This document shows positions 3,661 to 54,890 of a stretch of 64,000 bases of DNA, one piece after another. The DNA is from a virus. Lineage: Duplodnaviria > Heunggongvirae > Uroviricota > Caudoviricetes. Each line of letters starts with the position of its first letter. Position 1 is the first letter of the stretch. The notes beneath the pieces were generated by a model. The model had not been told where the DNA came from. It saw only the letters and a list, made by a program, of their open reading frames with translations, and did not search any database. The position numbers and the translations under genes are program-made. The stretch is taken from the IMG/VR virus record IMGVR_UViG_2657245091_000008. The stretch is one strand, 5' to 3'.

Positions 3661-4637
3661 TTGTTCGGCACTCCCAATATCATTCGTGTTGTGTAGCCTA
3701 CGCGGTCCTCAAAGTGCGCAACATTTTTTACTATCAGCTTACGGGGCATTGATTCATCAATGCGGTTTTCCTGGTCATAGCGGTATACGATAATCTCTAT
3801 TACCATCCCCGGTTTTATATCAGGATTGCCTGCGACTTCTATATCCATTTTGGGGACGAGAGACAGCTGCATATTGCGAAGAGTTTCCATATCAGAGTCG
3901 GATATATAACGCACTGGGAGTGAGCTATCGCCATATTCGACGTAGCCATCGGTCATGGAATACCCAACAAAACGATATTGATTCTTTGCTGTTGTCGCAT
4001 GTTCCTGTTGGAGTAGGCGCATTTTGGACAAAGTGTATTCTGCTTTAGGGTTATTCCCCTCGTAGGTAAATGATGGCGTTTGCTTCATCAGATCAGCCAG
4101 GGTGTAAAAGTTAAATTCCCCCCGGCATACCCAACATAATGCACCTTTGTCTCGCGCTATCTCCGAAAGCATTTTTGACGGTTTGTCACCGGCATTCAGA
4201 TGATATGTAACTGCGCGTTTTAGCACGCTGCTGGTAATTTTAAGCTTGCCGGAATATGCCTTGAATATAGCGTCTGGTGTTTTGTTGGTATGTAAATTTG
4301 TGCGCGGGGAGGGGATCTTAAACCTGCGCACGTCTTCACTGACAGCAATAACGGTAACAACATCACCAGCCAGCATTGCAGACGTAACAAAGAAATCTGT
4401 TTTAAAAGTGCCTGCATTACCGTTTGGATCGCCCATTTCAGCCACCAGCGATGCACCGTATTTGGCTTTCCAGTCATCAATTACGGTGCCGGTAGCGTCA
4501 TGAATTTCCAGTTTTAGCAAAGGGGCTTTGAGGCTGGTTTTTTCTACATATACTGCGGTAAAAATCCAGTCTCGTGGCACTTTGTTATCGTTAATGAGCA
4601 CTGACTGTAGAAAATATTGTTGTAACTCCTGGGCCAC
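3657..4637 (-). CDS. hypothetical protein (operon gene 3 of 4)
   Basis: 326-aa ORF, translationally coupled to its neighbours. Confidence 0.55.
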   Translation of the reverse strand: MAQELQQYFLQSVLINDNKVPRDWIFTAVYVEKTSLKAPLLKLEIHDATGTVIDDWKAKYGASLVAEMGDPNGNAGTFKTDFFVTSAMLAGDVVTVIAVSEDVRRFKIPSPRTNLHTNKTPDAIFKAYSGKLKITSSVLKRAVTYHLNAGDKPSKMLSEIARDKGALCWVCRGEFNFYTLADLMKQTPSFTYEGNNPKAEYTLSKMRLLQQEHATTAKNQYRFVGYSMTDGYVEYGDSSLPVRYISDSDMETLRNMQLSLVPKMDIEVAGNPDIKPGMVIEIIVYRYDQENRIDESMPRKLIVKNVAHFEDRVGYTTRMILGVPNK

Positions 4638-13671: not shown

Positions 13672-13980
13672 ATTGGCAGCCTCCTTTTGCTAAGTTAAGG
13701 AGCTACCGCGTGAGGTTCCAATCTCAATGGCGGTAGCACTGACTGGGTTGGAACTACCGGCGCAAAAGGGAACCGGCCTGCCTTTCGGCAGCCCAGCCAG
13801 CACTACCATTGATCTCTGAGCTAAACGCTACGTATGGCTGTGCGATGGCATGACACAAAAAAAGACGCTTTCGGCGTCTGTGTCGCCTTTTGCATTATCC
13901 GGGGTTCCAATCCCGGCACCCGTTTTTCTAAGGTGCCGTAGAAATATACCCCACGATAATGCCAGGGCGCAACAGTCAGT
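13672..13980 (-). ncRNA. structured untranslated leader, candidate c4-like antisense RNA region (copy 1)
   Basis: No credible ORF; GGTTCCAATC occurs twice (13706-13715, 13903-13912) with a partial complement at 13736-13745; hairpin plus T run on the minus strand around 13856-13880. Confidence 0.3.
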
Positions 13981-38592: not shown

Positions 38593-38985
38593 CTACCAGC
38601 GAGACAAACGAACAACATGTTTCACTTTTGCGATCCACTTTCCGCGATAACTATTGATTACGGCCTGTGCCAGCTTCAAATTGGCTTCAAAATCAGCCTT
38701 ACTACCATCAGACTCCACCAGCATTCCTCCATCTATTTCTGGTAAACATAGATAATCCTGCTCAACCTGCAGCGGCATTGATGGCTCTCTGAATGGCGTT
38801 ACTTGCTCTGCTTTCCAGCGAAATCTAACCCTCATCCCCCTGGTGGTCATTACTAGATAGCCTGTTATAGTGCTTTTATGGCCCACATCAGTACGCGTGG
38901 CATTGCATGACACGATCTTACAGTTAGCGATAGACCACTCCATATTGGTGGCCTGTTGAGTGCTTAATTTGGTAGTCCCGTACAT
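38593..38985 (-). CDS. hypothetical protein
   Basis: 130-aa ORF. Confidence 0.45.
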   Translation of the reverse strand: MYGTTKLSTQQATNMEWSIANCKIVSCNATRTDVGHKSTITGYLVMTTRGMRVRFRWKAEQVTPFREPSMPLQVEQDYLCLPEIDGGMLVESDGSKADFEANLKLAQAVINSYRGKWIAKVKHVVRLSRW

Positions 38986-39560
38986 CAGAAAGCCTCCCAG
39001 TCAGTCGCGATAATATCCACACCAGTTGCAAACCAGTCTGTCTGCGCCTGTAAATCCCCATTCATCATTACCAGGCGAGGCATCACCATCACATCGCACC
39101 CTTCCACAATATCGAATGCCTCTTCCGGCAAGAATTCGAAGAGCTTTTCTTTGCTGCCAATGCTGCCACGGAACATCGATATATAGCTCCCTTTAGGCCA
39201 TGATGTCCGCCGGGCATCAAGCCCTTTCATCATCCAGTAAAAAGCCGAGGAAAAAGGGATATTCTTTTTGCCAATGATTACATTATTCGCTTCTGTGTAC
39301 TTCAGGAACTTAACTAACCTTACCATTGACTCGGATAACGCAACGTATGGCTCATGATTGATTGCTGACACGCTTACACCGTGCAATCCAACGCTTACCA
39401 CTGTCATATCGCCGCTCTGTGCGGTTTCGATATTGACGCCTTTGCGAACTAATGAGGCGTAAAGTTCCTCTCGCTTTTGGGTCCAGCGTTCCCGCTTCCC
39501 TATGAAGTCACTCAAAATGAGATCTTCTTCTGCATATGCGTTATCGTTCGCCATTAACAT
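38985..39560 (-). CDS. hypothetical protein with DUF2829-like segment
   Basis: 191 aa; FSSAFYWMMKGLDARRTSWPKGSYI resembles the DUF2829 core. Confidence 0.4.
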   Translation of the reverse strand: MLMANDNAYAEEDLILSDFIGKRERWTQKREELYASLVRKGVNIETAQSGDMTVVSVGLHGVSVSAINHEPYVALSESMVRLVKFLKYTEANNVIIGKKNIPFSSAFYWMMKGLDARRTSWPKGSYISMFRGSIGSKEKLFEFLPEEAFDIVEGCDVMVMPRLVMMNGDLQAQTDWFATGVDIIATDWEAF

Positions 39561-40014
39561 AACGTCTCCTTTTTTACGCGCGCGACTATCCCCCGGAAGT
39601 ACCGGTAGTGATGTCGTAACTTCGTATTAATTAAGGGGTACAGCCTGAGCGGCTATATGATGAATTGAAAGGAGTTGTGGCGGTGGTGCCTCCACCTGCC
39701 AGGTTAGCCACTCCTGGCGACGTCACTTATCAGAACGTAGTGAATGAAAATGGCTTCGTCACGAGCGCATAGCCGCAATTACCACAACGGAAACGGCGCT
39801 CGCATTAATTAAACGCCTTTTCCTGTTGTGCGCCGTACTCTTCCGGCTGTCACACCGAATCGCCAGGATGGTGAGTCCCTGAGTCCGCTATCCCTCCAGC
39901 GGTGACTTGCACATTCCGGCTACCTGATGTGCCCATGCAGTGTTAGTAAGGTACCTAACAGCTACACCAGACCGCTAACGACGCATGTGCCATACGTCGT
40001 GTTACAACCAAATA

Positions 40015-40090
40015 TGGTGGCCCCTACCGGATTTGAACCGGTGACCGTGCGATTATGAGTCGCCTGCTCTAACCACTGAGCTAAAGGGCC
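40015..40090 (-). tRNA. tRNA-Ile (anticodon CAU, ileX-like) or tRNA-Met
   Basis: Minus-strand GGCCCTTTAGCTCAGTGGTTAGAGCAGGCGACTCATAATCGC...GGTTCAAATCC...GGGGCCACCA; cloverleaf with CAU anticodon and encoded CCA; very close to E. coli ileX as I recall it. Confidence 0.8.
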
Positions 40091-40227
40091 AGATTACTGT
40101 TAATTCCGCTTACGCTTTTTGCCAGAACCGCGTAAGGCTTTTGCCGCTTGCTCGACCCCATATGCAACCACCAGCAAAAATAAAAATGTCCAACCAGGGT
40201 TCTTATCGGCAAACGCCCAAAAATTCA

Positions 40228-40551
40228 TCACTTACAGCCACCTTGCATTTCCTCGGATAATTCATTGATTTTAGTGCTCAATAAGTAATCAAAGTAAAGA
40301 TAAAACACAAAAGTAACGATAGTGCTTAAAGTGTCTGAAATTGCGTATTTCAGCTCAGGAAGCATGACAAAGCAGACAAATAGCGGAAGAAATAACTGCA
40401 CTATGCACAGGCTCTCCTTCCACAACCATCTATATCTGAAGTCTGACAACAAAAACTCCATTGCTTGAAACTTTATTAGATTGCGGTGCCTGGTGCCTCC
40501 AGGTGACGTTAACCAGTTAACAATTAACGCCGGGATGTTTGACTTAACCAC
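40228..40551 (-). CDS. possible small membrane protein between tRNA genes
   Basis: 107-aa AT-rich ORF with hydrophobic stretches; no clear ribosome-binding site. Confidence 0.25.
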   Translation of the reverse strand: MVKSNIPALIVNWLTSPGGTRHRNLIKFQAMEFLLSDFRYRWLWKESLCIVQLFLPLFVCFVMLPELKYAISDTLSTIVTFVFYLYFDYLLSTKINELSEEMQGGCK

Positions 40552-40711
40552 TAAGGAGGATTGTTTTAACTGTTCCGCGTGCGCTTAGCCGCATTCACCG
40601 CAATGGTAAGAGCACTTGGCTGGCTGGGCGGCGATGACGCCTGTACGCATTTGGTGATCCGGTTCTGCTTCCGGCATTCGCTTAATTAGCCAAATACTCT
40701 TAACGTTGCGC

Positions 40712-40798
40712 TGGCGGAGAGTAATGGAATCGAACCATCATCGCTTGCGCAATGGGACGGTTTTCAAGACCGCTTGAGCACCATGCTCCCTACTCTCC
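40712..40798 (-). tRNA. class II tRNA, anticodon UGA (tRNA-Ser-like)
   Basis: 87 nt; acceptor GGAGAGT/ACTCTCC, anticodon loop CUUGAAA, variable arm with GCAA tetraloop, T loop TTCGATT, discriminator G, encoded CCA. Confidence 0.65.
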
Positions 40799-41170
40799 CG
40801 TTATTGTGGCGACCGGTGCTGATCTCCGGCTTGCGGTTATTTCAGACTCTCACGGGCGTTTAATTGCCCCGCCGAACAGCTCTTTTCCGCAATAGCTGCA
40901 ATGTCTTTCGCGCATCAGCCTGCGCATTCACCACAATGTTGAGAACACTGGTTGTCACGCTGCAACGCAACATTTATTCGTAGATTGGGATATGACCCCG
41001 TTACGCCAGTGTTCTCAACGTTGTAGTGCCGGTTACGGTTCCGGCCAGGCCTCTTCCTCAACGGGGTGTTCTCCATACGGACTACCGTTTATTGGTCGTT
41101 CCTGCGGTTTATGTTGTGAAGCCAGATGCTTATCTTCTGGTTGCTTCAAAGAGCTGCACTTCCTCACAAC

Positions 41171-41244
41171 GGTAAGGGTACTTCGTAGGGATTCGAACCC
41201 TCTGCCAAGCTCGGCGATCTCCGACGTCGCAAAATACCCTTACC
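41171..41244 (-). other. tRNA-like fragment / degenerate tRNA
   Basis: Contains a T-arm-like GGGTTCGAATCCC and a 10-bp terminal inverted repeat (GGTAAGGGTA...TACCCTTACC) but no foldable anticodon or D arm. Confidence 0.3.
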
Positions 41245-41252
41245 TGTTGTGC

Positions 41253-41328
41253 TGGTGCCGATTAACGGACTCGAACCGCTGACCATTCGCTTACAAAGCG
41301 ACTGCTCTACCAACTGAGCTAAATCGGC
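41253..41328 (-). tRNA. tRNA-Thr (anticodon UGU)
   Basis: GCCGATTTAGCTCAGTTGGTAGAGCAGTCGCTTTGTAAGCGAATGGTCAGCGGTTCGAGTCCGTTAATCGGCACCA on the minus strand. Confidence 0.85.
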
Positions 41329-41332
41329 AATT

Positions 41333-41419
41333 TGGTGGGGAGTGATGGAGTCGAACCACCCGAGTCGCAATGACAGTAGATTTACAGTCTACCCCGCTAC
41401 CCCTACGGACTAACTCCCC
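41333..41419 (-). tRNA. tRNA-Tyr (anticodon GUA)
   Basis: 87-nt class II tRNA; anticodon arm GTAGACTGTAAATCTAC, T loop GGTTCGACTCC, discriminator A, CCA. Confidence 0.8.
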
Positions 41420-41424
41420 TAAAG

Positions 41425-41501
41425 TGGCGATGGTGGGTGGATTCGAACCACCGACCGACAGCTTAGAAGGCTGCTGCTCTATCCTACTGAGCTACACCAT
41501 C
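41425..41501 (-). tRNA. tRNA-Arg (anticodon UCU, rare AGA/AGG decoder)
   Basis: GATGGTGTAGCTCAGTAGGATAGAGCAGCAGCCTTCTAAGCTGTCGGTCGGTGGTTCGAATCCACCCACCATCGCCA. Confidence 0.8.
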
Positions 41502-42735
41502 ACTTGCCGGGTACGTCTCCGGCGAGGGCTTCCACCTCCGTATGCTTTTCGGCGCACCGCGCCCTGGCTGCAATTCGGTAACAGGGGATGCATAACCCTG
41601 GCTTCCAGCGTGATTAGCGCCTTCAGCATGACGGGATATACCCGTTACAAGAAATTCCCCCAGGATGCCATTAAGCAATGGCTGTTACGCGGGAGGGACG
41701 TAACAGGTAAGGGCGCTGACCAGAAAGACCTGACCCTTCTCATTCATCTGGTTAATCACACCAGCGCCCTTGCCTGTTATGCCTCCCCGTTCCCTAATAC
41801 ACAGACGGGGACACTCTGCGGTCGATTTTTTGACGGGGGACGACTCATACCCCGTGGCGTCTGGCTTCTTAGGCCGCTACCATCATCAGATCATCGTTTG
41901 CATTTACTTTAATGGTCGGTTTCTAAACCGCCGCAAAGTCGCTAACCATGACGAAAACCCTAAAAAAGCCCACCCGAAGATGGGCAAATACGCTACATCT
42001 CACACAAGAAAGAAGCCGACTGCCTGAGCTGGATTCACTTTCAAATGCCCGCAGAAAGGGATCACAAGTCGGCTTCTTTCTTGATGCGGCACTCTCTCCG
42101 CCCGTCACCGCTCTGTCTCGGTTGTCGCGTTTGCCACGCCAGCCGTAACGAGGTTTAAAGTCTTTGCACGTTTCCATCACTCGACTGCCGTCTGTGGCTG
42201 TTCGTTGCAGCGGGGGTGCCTCCCCCTGGGGATATCCCCGGCCTTACCCCATTCTTTCAAGACACAATGCAAGGCCACATCCGCATAGGTGCATTACCGC
42301 AACATTAAGGAGACTCAGGGCAAAAGGTAACCGCCACAAAAATCCCTATGCCTCCTTAATGTTGAAGATGTGCATTGATGATTAGATGCAGCATGTACTG
42401 TTACTCTCTGCCGGACCATCATCAATGAACACCTTAAAAAGACCTTCCGTGGCTCAACATGTATTGTCGTTTACTCCGCAAAGTGCTCTCTCTGAAACCA
42501 CTTTCCGCACTAAACCTGTTGAACTTTGGTCAGCTCGGTGCCAAAGCGTGCTTTTGCTTTACTATACTTTTCTAACACTTTAATTTGTTAACAGCCGGTG
42601 GGCAAACAATAACCAATAAGTGACTATCAAGCCCAGCAAGCGAAACGTGGGTGCCGCCCACCAGCAAGGAAAATTCTATGTTAAGTTATCATCACAATCA
42701 ATACATTCGAATTGTGATTTTAGATTTCTAACACA

Positions 42736-54568: not shown

Positions 54569-54890
54569 AGTTACGGCCTCACTAACAGGTTTAACAACCT
54601 GCCACCCGCTGTCAAACAGGTGGCAGGACGTGACAGGGTTGACAGACTGGCGTTAGTGAAACCAGCAGGCCGAAGCCTCCCCATCACGCCCCACCATAAT
54701 TCGGGCGTAACGCGGTTTACGGACACAAAAATACCGCAATATCGGAAATCTGCGGTTGTCCGCACTAACATTCAGGCTGTCAAACCCGGTCGCAGAATTT
54801 GCTACGACGGCATGAATATAAGCCTGAAAACATGGAAGATCAACTAAAAATTTCAGCAATGGATGACTTCAGTCGATGATGCAGATCATA
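54569..54890 (-). ncRNA. structured untranslated leader, candidate c4-like antisense RNA region (copy 2)
   Basis: CTGTCAAAC occurs twice (54609-54617, 54777-54785) with its complement GTTGACAG at 54638-54645; 9-bp stem hairpin CCTGCCACC...GGTGGCAGG. Confidence 0.3.

Follow-up and report, generated by a model that had tools for sequence, protein, structure and literature searches.

Hairpins with a fixed AGGCA loop in a tailed-phage sequence form the last helix of a five-helix RNA domain of the STnc100/PasD family

Three AGGCA hairpins are parts of a five-helix RNA domain

The DNA analysed here is a 64,000-nucleotide (nt) stretch of a member of the Caudoviricetes (IMG/VR record IMGVR_UViG_2657245091_000008); the whole stretch is called the window, and positions are counted from its first letter. 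Within 2.5 kb it carries three hairpins with one and the same five-nucleotide loop and a stem of 5 base pairs (bp) that differs from site to site. We show that each of them forms P5, the last helix of a compact RNA domain in which five helices meet at a junction; the domain is encoded on the minus strand and makes up the conserved body of STnc100/PasD (Rfam RF02076), a family of prophage small RNAs (sRNAs). The three copies are paralogous repeats of one domain. A preliminary description, made from the letters of the window alone, had taken the hairpins for a free-standing family with a TGCCT loop and had added a related TGCCG hairpin. All four hairpins are present, at 40489-40503 and 42647-42661 as described and, one position lower than described, at 39682-39696 and 42212-42226. 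A search for N5-TGCCT-N5 with reverse-complement stems over the 64 kb returned three perfect hairpins only, all on one strand. The elements are read on the minus strand, and the genes downstream of them are mostly co-oriented. Since the promoter and the terminator of the surrounding operon lie on the minus strand, the relevant RNA is that of the minus strand and the hairpins read NNNGG-AGGCA-CCNNN, with a loop AGGCA rather than UGCCU. Nor do they stand alone, each being one helix of a domain of about 100-135 nt that is already represented in Rfam.

A perfect 7-bp closing stem, its strands 100-138 nt apart, was found in 147 of 193 unique hairpin-bearing sequences, and the minimum-free-energy (MFE) folds of 56 diverse representatives share one architecture. 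The order of the domain is closing stem P1 (8-9 bp), junction AAU, hairpin P2 (loop UNNGC, one bulge), the variable arm P3, hairpin P4, a single A, and the 5-bp hairpin P5 (loop AGGCA), which abuts the 3' strand of helix P1. A covariance model of the domain core (R1; 125 positions, 29 pairs) matched the window exactly four times, always on the minus strand (copies A to D). Copies A, B and D, which hold the three AGGCA hairpins, match by construction, as near-identical sequences are in the seed. Copy C was not seeded; it is a genuine fourth member, its P5 carrying a 9-nt loop (40812-40830), and the preliminary description overlooked it. A search for relatives with the model, which that description had advised, also matched phages P1 (upstream of tciA, with loop AAGCA), P7, RCS47 and Ro157, and many lambdoid prophages.

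Covariation supports this fold. In an alignment of 83 distinct sequences fitted to R1, 90.7% of the cells were paired compared to 71.0% in shuffles, and double-change cells numbered 468 compared to 171. None of 500 shuffles reached the observed values, slid controls gave at most 0.12 compared to 0.457, and compensatory changes were seen in all five helices. In an independent collection, gathered with a pattern for the 5' helices P1 and P2 that ignored P5 (63 unique sequences), the loop was AGGCA in about 57 of the 63 and the stems were CCUGG or CCGGG; AAGCA, AGGAA and AGGCG were rare loops. Across the family, the stem under the AGGCA loop is CCUGG, CCGGG, GGUGG or GGGGG. A stem that covaries under a nearly fixed loop had been read as the mark of a selected RNA or protein-recognition structure, and a selected RNA structure is borne out. 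On the transcribed strand G.U pairs outnumber A.C (126 versus 62). Genes downstream of the element are co-oriented with it in 208 of 220 contexts, compared to only 123 of 211 for the upstream neighbours. The downstream co-orientation and the excess of G.U point to this strand as the RNA sense.

Comparative evidence for the hairpins

The preliminary description would have had the pattern fall if it occurred as often as chance predicts, and the simulations gave a divided answer. Of 300 windows simulated with a first-order Markov model, one had at least three TGCCT/AGGCA hairpins, but in 52 (17%) some pentaloop or other recurred at least three times. The pentamer itself is not enriched (123 TGCCT/AGGCA sites in the window compared to 139 +/- 12 in shuffles). 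Because of the 52 simulations, the hairpin count within the window, which is post hoc, is not decisive alone, and the same figure is what would favour short GC-rich palindromes with a coincident loop. The decisive evidence is comparative. Three AGGCA hairpins are kept in the same order in 27 D6-like loci (IMG/VR), where the middle hairpin has the stem CCUGG/CCAGG or, by a compensatory change from T:A to G:C, CCGGG/CCCGG. When viral contigs were scanned with an extended pattern (CA-NNNGG-AGGCA-CCNNN-N(1-2)-CYRCAA), 244 of 258 matches had complementary stems, compared to 1 in 64 expected by chance; the matches span many sequence contexts, mostly lambdoid contigs of about 40 kb. Among genome contigs (a 596-Gb collection) stems were paired in 28 of 121 matches, the remainder being chance matches. 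Among loci up to L447, the paired ones with a listed organism come from Enterobacterales, save one Pedobacter and one Streptomyces record, which may reflect chance or contamination. In the window, the hairpins are clustered on one strand, share flanks (a 25-nt repeat, GTTGNNGCGGNGGTGCCTCCNCCTG, is common to two of the sites) and are embedded in the covarying domain of 100-135 nt. Judged by these comparisons, the hairpins are real and selected, and the probability that they are coincidental palindromes is close to nil; we consider that reading refuted.

The fourth reported hairpin is of a different kind. On the minus strand, 42647-42661 reads GUGGG-CGGCA-CCCAC. It is a promoter-proximal hairpin near the 5' end of the transcript, and the promoter -10 element lies 12 nt upstream of it. 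D6 and most relatives have the loop CGGUA at this position and one has CAGUA, while in others both stem and loop differ. No domain was found around it with R1. We conclude that it is a conserved 5'-proximal transcript hairpin outside the AGGCA family and not the relative for which it had been taken.

The domain is the conserved body of STnc100/PasD

The RF02076 consensus includes CCGGGAGGCACCCGG and holds UCACCGGGAGGCACCCGGCACCA. In a search of Rfam by E-value, copy B (40482-40602, minus strand) matched STnc100 with 39.4 bits (E 2e-6 to 2e-7, model positions 31-147), its hairpin aligning to STnc100 CCGGG-AGGCA-CCCGG directly 5' of the 3' strand of the closing stem. The core architecture of STnc100 was recovered: closing stem, AAU, P2, variable arms, UCA, and P5 abutting the closing stem. 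The 3' single-stranded region and the Rho-independent terminator of the model (positions 148-206) are absent from copies A to C, and copy D has a terminator only at a distance of about 220 nt. In the lambdoid loci tested, R1 matched wherever Rfam reported STnc100 (seven of seven hits). Several loci (L155, L035, L044, L050 and L209) have a strong R1 match but no Rfam hit at gathering level, so the family extends beyond the Rfam model.

STnc100 is reported to be a prophage-encoded sRNA, its targets and those of PasD are known from interactome data only, and one of the copies is found 75 nt downstream of stx2 (PMC8550237; bioRxiv 10.64898/2026.05.13.724894; PMC12370729). The related PasD RNAs are reported as sRNAs that depend on Hfq, and Northern blots detected them at the sizes that RNA-seq had predicted (PMC8550237). 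With STnc100, PasD1 and PasD2 of lambdoid prophages in Salmonella and in enteropathogenic and enterohaemorrhagic Escherichia coli, the window domains share the five-helix core, the P5 consensus CCGGG-AGGCA-CCCGG flanked by UCA and CACCA, and a phage-borne location in Enterobacterales. Copies in lambdoid prophages run into a short single-stranded stretch and then an intrinsic terminator, and they are stand-alone genes; full-length STnc100 flanks holin, lysozyme and Rz genes in lambdoid loci such as L226. In contrast, copies A to C of the window have no single-stranded spacer, terminator or promoter of their own and lie inside a tRNA/cargo operon of a P1/D6-type phage-plasmid. In addition, the Rfam model misses the GGUAAU/GGUGG subtype (copies A and D) and the 9-nt-loop subtype (copy C).

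Two further features of the lambdoid loci were observed. In L167 (4379-5460), and also in L160, L163 and L210, three to four STnc100-like sRNA genes, each with domain, spacer and terminator, follow one another in tandem with a period of about 255 nt. A conserved box, GCUGUGUGUAGUC, follows the domain and precedes the terminator hairpin in phage SfIV (L366, 3759-3830) and in many of the lambdoid loci; this box is a possible seed region for that sRNA subtype.

A proposed contact between the P2 and P5 loops would explain the fixed loop

The subtype with a 9-nt loop, to which copy C belongs, is widespread, and it offers a view of what the P5 loop may do. A scan that fixed only helix P1 and the P2 stem gave about 60 distinct members, both ends of which aligned without gaps. 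In these sequences 5 nt of the P2 loop GGCUGA can pair with the P5 loop (GCUGA:UCAGC), and 97.2% of the cells of this loop-loop helix are paired (50 distinct sequences). Two loci (L576 and L586) have GCUAA:UUAGC instead, which amounts to one compensatory change; the other changes are G.U-compatible. We infer that the P5 loop probably docks on the P2 loop and so forms an elbow between the first and last hairpins. Such docking would account for a loop that stays fixed while its stem drifts. In the 9-nt-loop type the contact would be 5 bp long (GCUGA:UCAGC). Its homologous form in the AGGCA type would join the invariant GC of the P2 loop (UNNGC) to the GC of AGGCA, with a U:A pair added in about half of the sequences. 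Loop-loop covariation is uninformative in the AGGCA type because both loops are nearly invariant. The contact is a new structural proposal, and the fixed loop is probably best explained by it.

The four copies in the window

All four copies lie on the minus strand. Copy A (39674-39788; R1 95.2 bits, E 3e-21) has helix P1 GUUGUGGU/GCCACAAC, P2 loop UAUGC at 39767-39771 and P5 GGUGG-AGGCA-CCACC at 39682-39696, the first of the hairpins described before. Helices P1 to P5 are all present in its MFE fold, it is kept in D6-like loci, and the Tad2 gene starts 114 nt downstream. Copy B (40480-40604; 88.1 bits) has helix P1 AUUGCGGUG/CACCGCAAU, P2 loop UAAGC at 40583-40587 and, as P5, the second hairpin, CCUGG-AGGCA-CCAGG (40489-40503). 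Its end lies 17 nt upstream of the ATG (40462) of a TciB-like open reading frame, and it forms the 5' edge of a variable cargo segment, the sequences of relatives diverging directly past CACCGCAA. Copy C, the 9-nt-loop copy (40803-40937; 36.4 bits, E 4e-7), has P2 GCGCA-GGCUGA-UGCGC at 40910-40925 and P5 GCCGG-AGAUCAGCA-CCGGU at 40812-40830, and ends 4 nt from tRNA-Ser. In copy D (42204-42303; 66.9 bits) helix P1 is GUUGCGG/CUGCAAC, with one G.U pair (relatives have GUUGCAG), the P2 loop is UAUGC at 42283-42287 and P5 is the third hairpin, GGGGG-AGGCA-CCCCC (42212-42226); MFE folds show the five-helix architecture.

Copies A to C are set among tRNAs and cargo genes. None of the three has a promoter or a terminator of its own, and what comes next is the Tad2 leader, the open reading frame and tRNA-Ser, respectively. 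An intrinsic terminator lies about 220 nt downstream of copy D. None of the three AGGCA hairpins was listed in the terminator scan, so that they are not themselves intrinsic terminators; the hairpin at 42647-42661 was listed weakly (tail GUUUCGCUUG).

The minus strand also holds long hairpins, with stems of 16-23 bp and a shared stem base GCACAACAGG...CCGUUGUG, at 39774-39831, 40590-40703, 40929-41028, 41166-41252 and 41692-41788, several of which begin directly after tRNA 3' ends. In MFE folds of copies A and C the 3' arm of the long hairpin overlaps the 5' strand of the closing stem, and the two pairings are mutually exclusive. The long hairpins are candidates for RNase III sites or structural switches. 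That at 41166-41252 has a 17-bp stem around a perfect tRNA T-arm sequence, GGGUUCGAAUCCC (about 41187-41203); ARAGORN called no tRNA there, and the hairpin could hold what is left of a tRNA, or a tRNA-like insert. At about 41110-41167 (minus strand) there is a mini domain with closing stem GUUGUGAGGAAG/CUUCACAAC and a single hairpin, CCAGA-AGAUAAGCA-UCUGG, without P2 to P4.

The copies lie in an operon like the ban/tRNA operon of phage P1

The window is a P1/D6-type phage-plasmid. Over the 4.5 kb tested, its identity is 99.8% to a plasmid of E. coli O45:H2 and 96.8% to phage D6, while P7, RCS47 and P1 match in part. The hairpin stretch is bounded by a pmgS-like gene and the gene for Tad2 (anti-Thoeris), and every tRNA and gene in it is carried by the minus strand. 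It is the counterpart of the ban/tRNA operon of phages P1 and P7, the annotated order of which is a C1-controlled promoter, tRNAs, tciABC and one more tRNA. Five tRNA genes (40015-41501, minus strand; ARAGORN and the Rfam tRNA model) are interspersed with the RNA domains: tRNA-Arg (41425-41501), tRNA-Tyr (41333-41419), tRNA-Thr (41253-41328), tRNA-Ser (40712-40798) and tRNA-Ile2/Met-CAT (40015-40090). The tRNA content differs among relatives, and so does the cargo after copy B, which is absent, tciB'-tciC, tciA-B-C, or a membrane protein with an SPFH lipoprotein.

Only one promoter-like site was found between 38.9 and 43.2 kb, a sigma-70-like TTGATT-17-TAGAAT at 42673-42701 (minus strand), which has an overlapping inverted repeat and is kept in D6-like loci. 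Pban/Op(ban) is annotated upstream of the tRNAs in P1 and P7, and by its position the site is the counterpart of the C1-controlled Pban of phage P1. The inverted repeat (AAUCACAAU...AUUGAUUGUGAU, 42688-42716, minus strand) overlaps the -35 region and is probably a D6-type repressor operator, the counterpart of P1 Op72/Oban. Further inverted repeats occur at 42300-42438. Downstream of copy D, a perfect 17-bp hairpin (CAAGAAAGAAGCCGACU...) at 42005-42083 is followed by a strong intrinsic terminator at 41968-41985 (GCCCAUCUUCGGGUGGGC, then U6), both on the minus strand. Copy D, this hairpin and the terminator look like an sRNA-like unit of about 335 nt at the head of the operon. At the other end, the gene for a Thoeris anti-defence Tad2 family protein (RefSeq; 38985-39560, minus strand) directly follows copy A, so the operon of tRNAs and RNA domains runs into an anti-defence gene.

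Phage P1 itself (AF234172, L002) carries a 9-nt-loop domain at 4283-4384, antisense inside the annotated upl/plp open reading frames, and an AAGCA-loop domain at 4000-4123, beneath the predicted P1upl/P2upl promoters. The upl/plp and promoter annotations may be artefacts laid over structured RNA of the ban operon.

Proposed role of the domain and alternatives

The account that we favour, and hold to be probably correct as a whole, is that the AGGCA hairpins belong to a five-helix STnc100/PasD domain, that the P5 loop is held fixed by docking on the P2 loop, and that the domain may serve as a stable module. It may fold on its own and resist nucleases. In lambdoid prophages its fusion to a single-stranded spacer and a terminator may yield the Hfq-dependent sRNAs. 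Copies A to C would instead be part of one transcript under C1-type control, between tRNAs and cargo genes, and RNase P and other tRNA-processing enzymes may cut this precursor so that the copies are released or retained as stable RNAs. A terminator-less, multi-copy arrangement of a known RNA family in a phage-plasmid tRNA operon is new.

Several observations weigh against this account. The covariation alignment is model-fitted, and most of its sequences were gathered through a pattern anchored on P5. The compensatory change in the 9-nt-loop subtype comes from one lineage (two similar sequences), and the AGGCA-type contact spans only 2-3 bp and has no covariation. P1-like relatives tolerate the loops AAGCA, AGGUA and AGGAA, the last of which would break the P2-P5 contact. 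The long upstream hairpins compete with helix P1 in copies A and C, and the domain may not always form. Finally, the 39.4 bits of copy B stay below the gathering score of RF02076, 47, which is the threshold for membership, and copies A, C and D had no match to RF02076 listed even at E<=10.

Cis-acting antitermination signals, either boxB-like for an N-type protein or put-like RNAs that alter RNA polymerase, would allow transcription through 41968-41985 to the distal tRNAs, the cargo and Tad2. In the lambda and P22 nut sites, boxB is a 5-bp stem with a pentaloop. P5 has this geometry and resembles boxB of lambda, P22 and phi21 in being a 15-nt hairpin of phage operon leaders with a fixed loop and a variable stem. 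There is also a strong terminator inside the operon, downstream of copy D; the domain of SfIV lies in an early-left operon downstream of a PL-like promoter; and 95% of downstream genes are co-oriented, the upstream neighbours being often divergent. However, boxB loops are GNRA-like (GAAAA, GAAGA, GACAA), with boxA upstream, whereas AGGCA is not, no boxA (CGCUCUUA) appeared on reading the flanks of the copies, no N-like partner was identified, and the hairpin is buried in a five-helix junction. Resemblance to put is limited to a structured phage RNA within a transcript, downstream of early promoters in some phages (SfIV): put RNA is about 70 nt long with two stem-loops (PMC9378689), unlike the five-helix domain. 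The whole genome of HK022, the reference phage for put, has no R1 match even at E<=10, a comparison made with the model rather than by alignment of the put sequences. Many copies form sRNA genes by themselves, each ending in its own terminator and some arrayed in tandem, and PasD transcripts had the predicted sizes on Northern blots (PMC8550237). Termination directly after the domain, seen in many family members, therefore speaks against a processive antiterminator, which would prevent it. We consider an antitermination role unlikely.

It is doubtful, too, that the domains are mere processing punctuation, that is, tRNA-like or double-stranded RNA signals for RNase P, RNase III or RNase E whose released RNA has no function. 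The topology is that of a class II tRNA, with a closing stem and four arms, the last of which has 5 bp and stacks on the closing stem, and with a proposed contact of first and last loops. Copy C lies 4 nt before tRNA-Ser, hairpins of 16-23 bp begin just past tRNA 3' ends, and the C4 RNA of P1 and P7 is matured by RNase P. T4 species 1 and 2, which are stable non-tRNA RNAs of a phage tRNA cluster, are likewise interleaved with tRNA genes in one transcript. Yet ARAGORN and the Rfam tRNA model find only the five true tRNAs and no similarity at the domains; the stack of helices P1 and P5 is 13-14 bp and not 12, there is no anticodon and no CCA, and the pentaloops are not D- or T-loops. Monocistronic sRNA genes, where there is nothing to separate, contain the same domain. 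Conservation at the DNA level, as recombination linkers or single-stranded DNA hairpin sites at module boundaries that shuffle tRNA and cargo cassettes, would fit the position of copy B exactly where relatives split into four cargo sets, a hybrid upstream flank in locus L030, and the variable tRNA content. We find it very unlikely, since compensatory changes in five helices keep pairing and not sequence, G.U exceeds A.C on the transcribed strand, orientation tracks the downstream genes in 95% of contexts, and no recombinase is regularly found next to the element; where a repeat is conserved, homologous exchange may arise as a side effect. Neither punctuation nor a DNA-level function explains the same fold in monocistronic sRNA genes or the strand-specific pairing, and both are possible as side roles of the STnc100/PasD-type domain.

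A more far-reaching version, to which we give little credence, holds that the STnc100/PasD core is an autonomous functional RNA rather than sRNA scaffolding alone, with tRNA topology and a P2-P5 elbow, and that it binds a conserved host or phage factor. P1/D6-type phage-plasmids would then use several copies that lack a terminator, along with tRNAs and tad2, as part of a counter-defence or expression-control locus. The partner might be an RNase, an enzyme that handles tRNA, RNA polymerase or a protein of a defence system.

STnc100/PasD sRNAs are abundant in prophages of pathogenic E. coli and Salmonella, and interest so far has centred on the seed regions at their 3' ends. What is conserved is a compact junction of five helices, probably with a loop-loop elbow, the family includes P1, P7, D6 and two further subtypes beyond the Rfam model, and the domain can exist without seed or terminator, amid tRNAs. 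Together, the compact core, the wider family and the seedless copies suggest that the fold itself is the selected unit. Mutants that set the P5 loop against the P2 loop follow directly from the proposed contact, and a probable mis-annotation of upl/plp in the P1 reference is flagged.

Other candidates and additional RNA loci

Besides STnc100, Rfam gave no hit at E<=10 to known ribozymes, riboswitches or tRNA at the domains. Other identities considered for the hairpins were rejected. The P1 late-promoter -22 box is excluded as the P7 LPdam2 sequence is unrelated, and GGAGG in the hairpin has no start codon at a distance workable for a Shine-Dalgarno role. Integron attC sites have the cores RYYYAAC/GTTRRRY, which CACAAC/GTTGTG mismatch. 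A CsrA-type hairpin would present GGA in the loop, whereas here the loop is AGGCA and GG sits in the stem.

Elsewhere on the minus strand of the window there are two separate C4 antisense RNA loci, at 13726-13936 and 54616-54821, one accompanied by isrK and the other by the c4-a1b1 target motif. Their presence suggests two immunity-I-type regions in one element.

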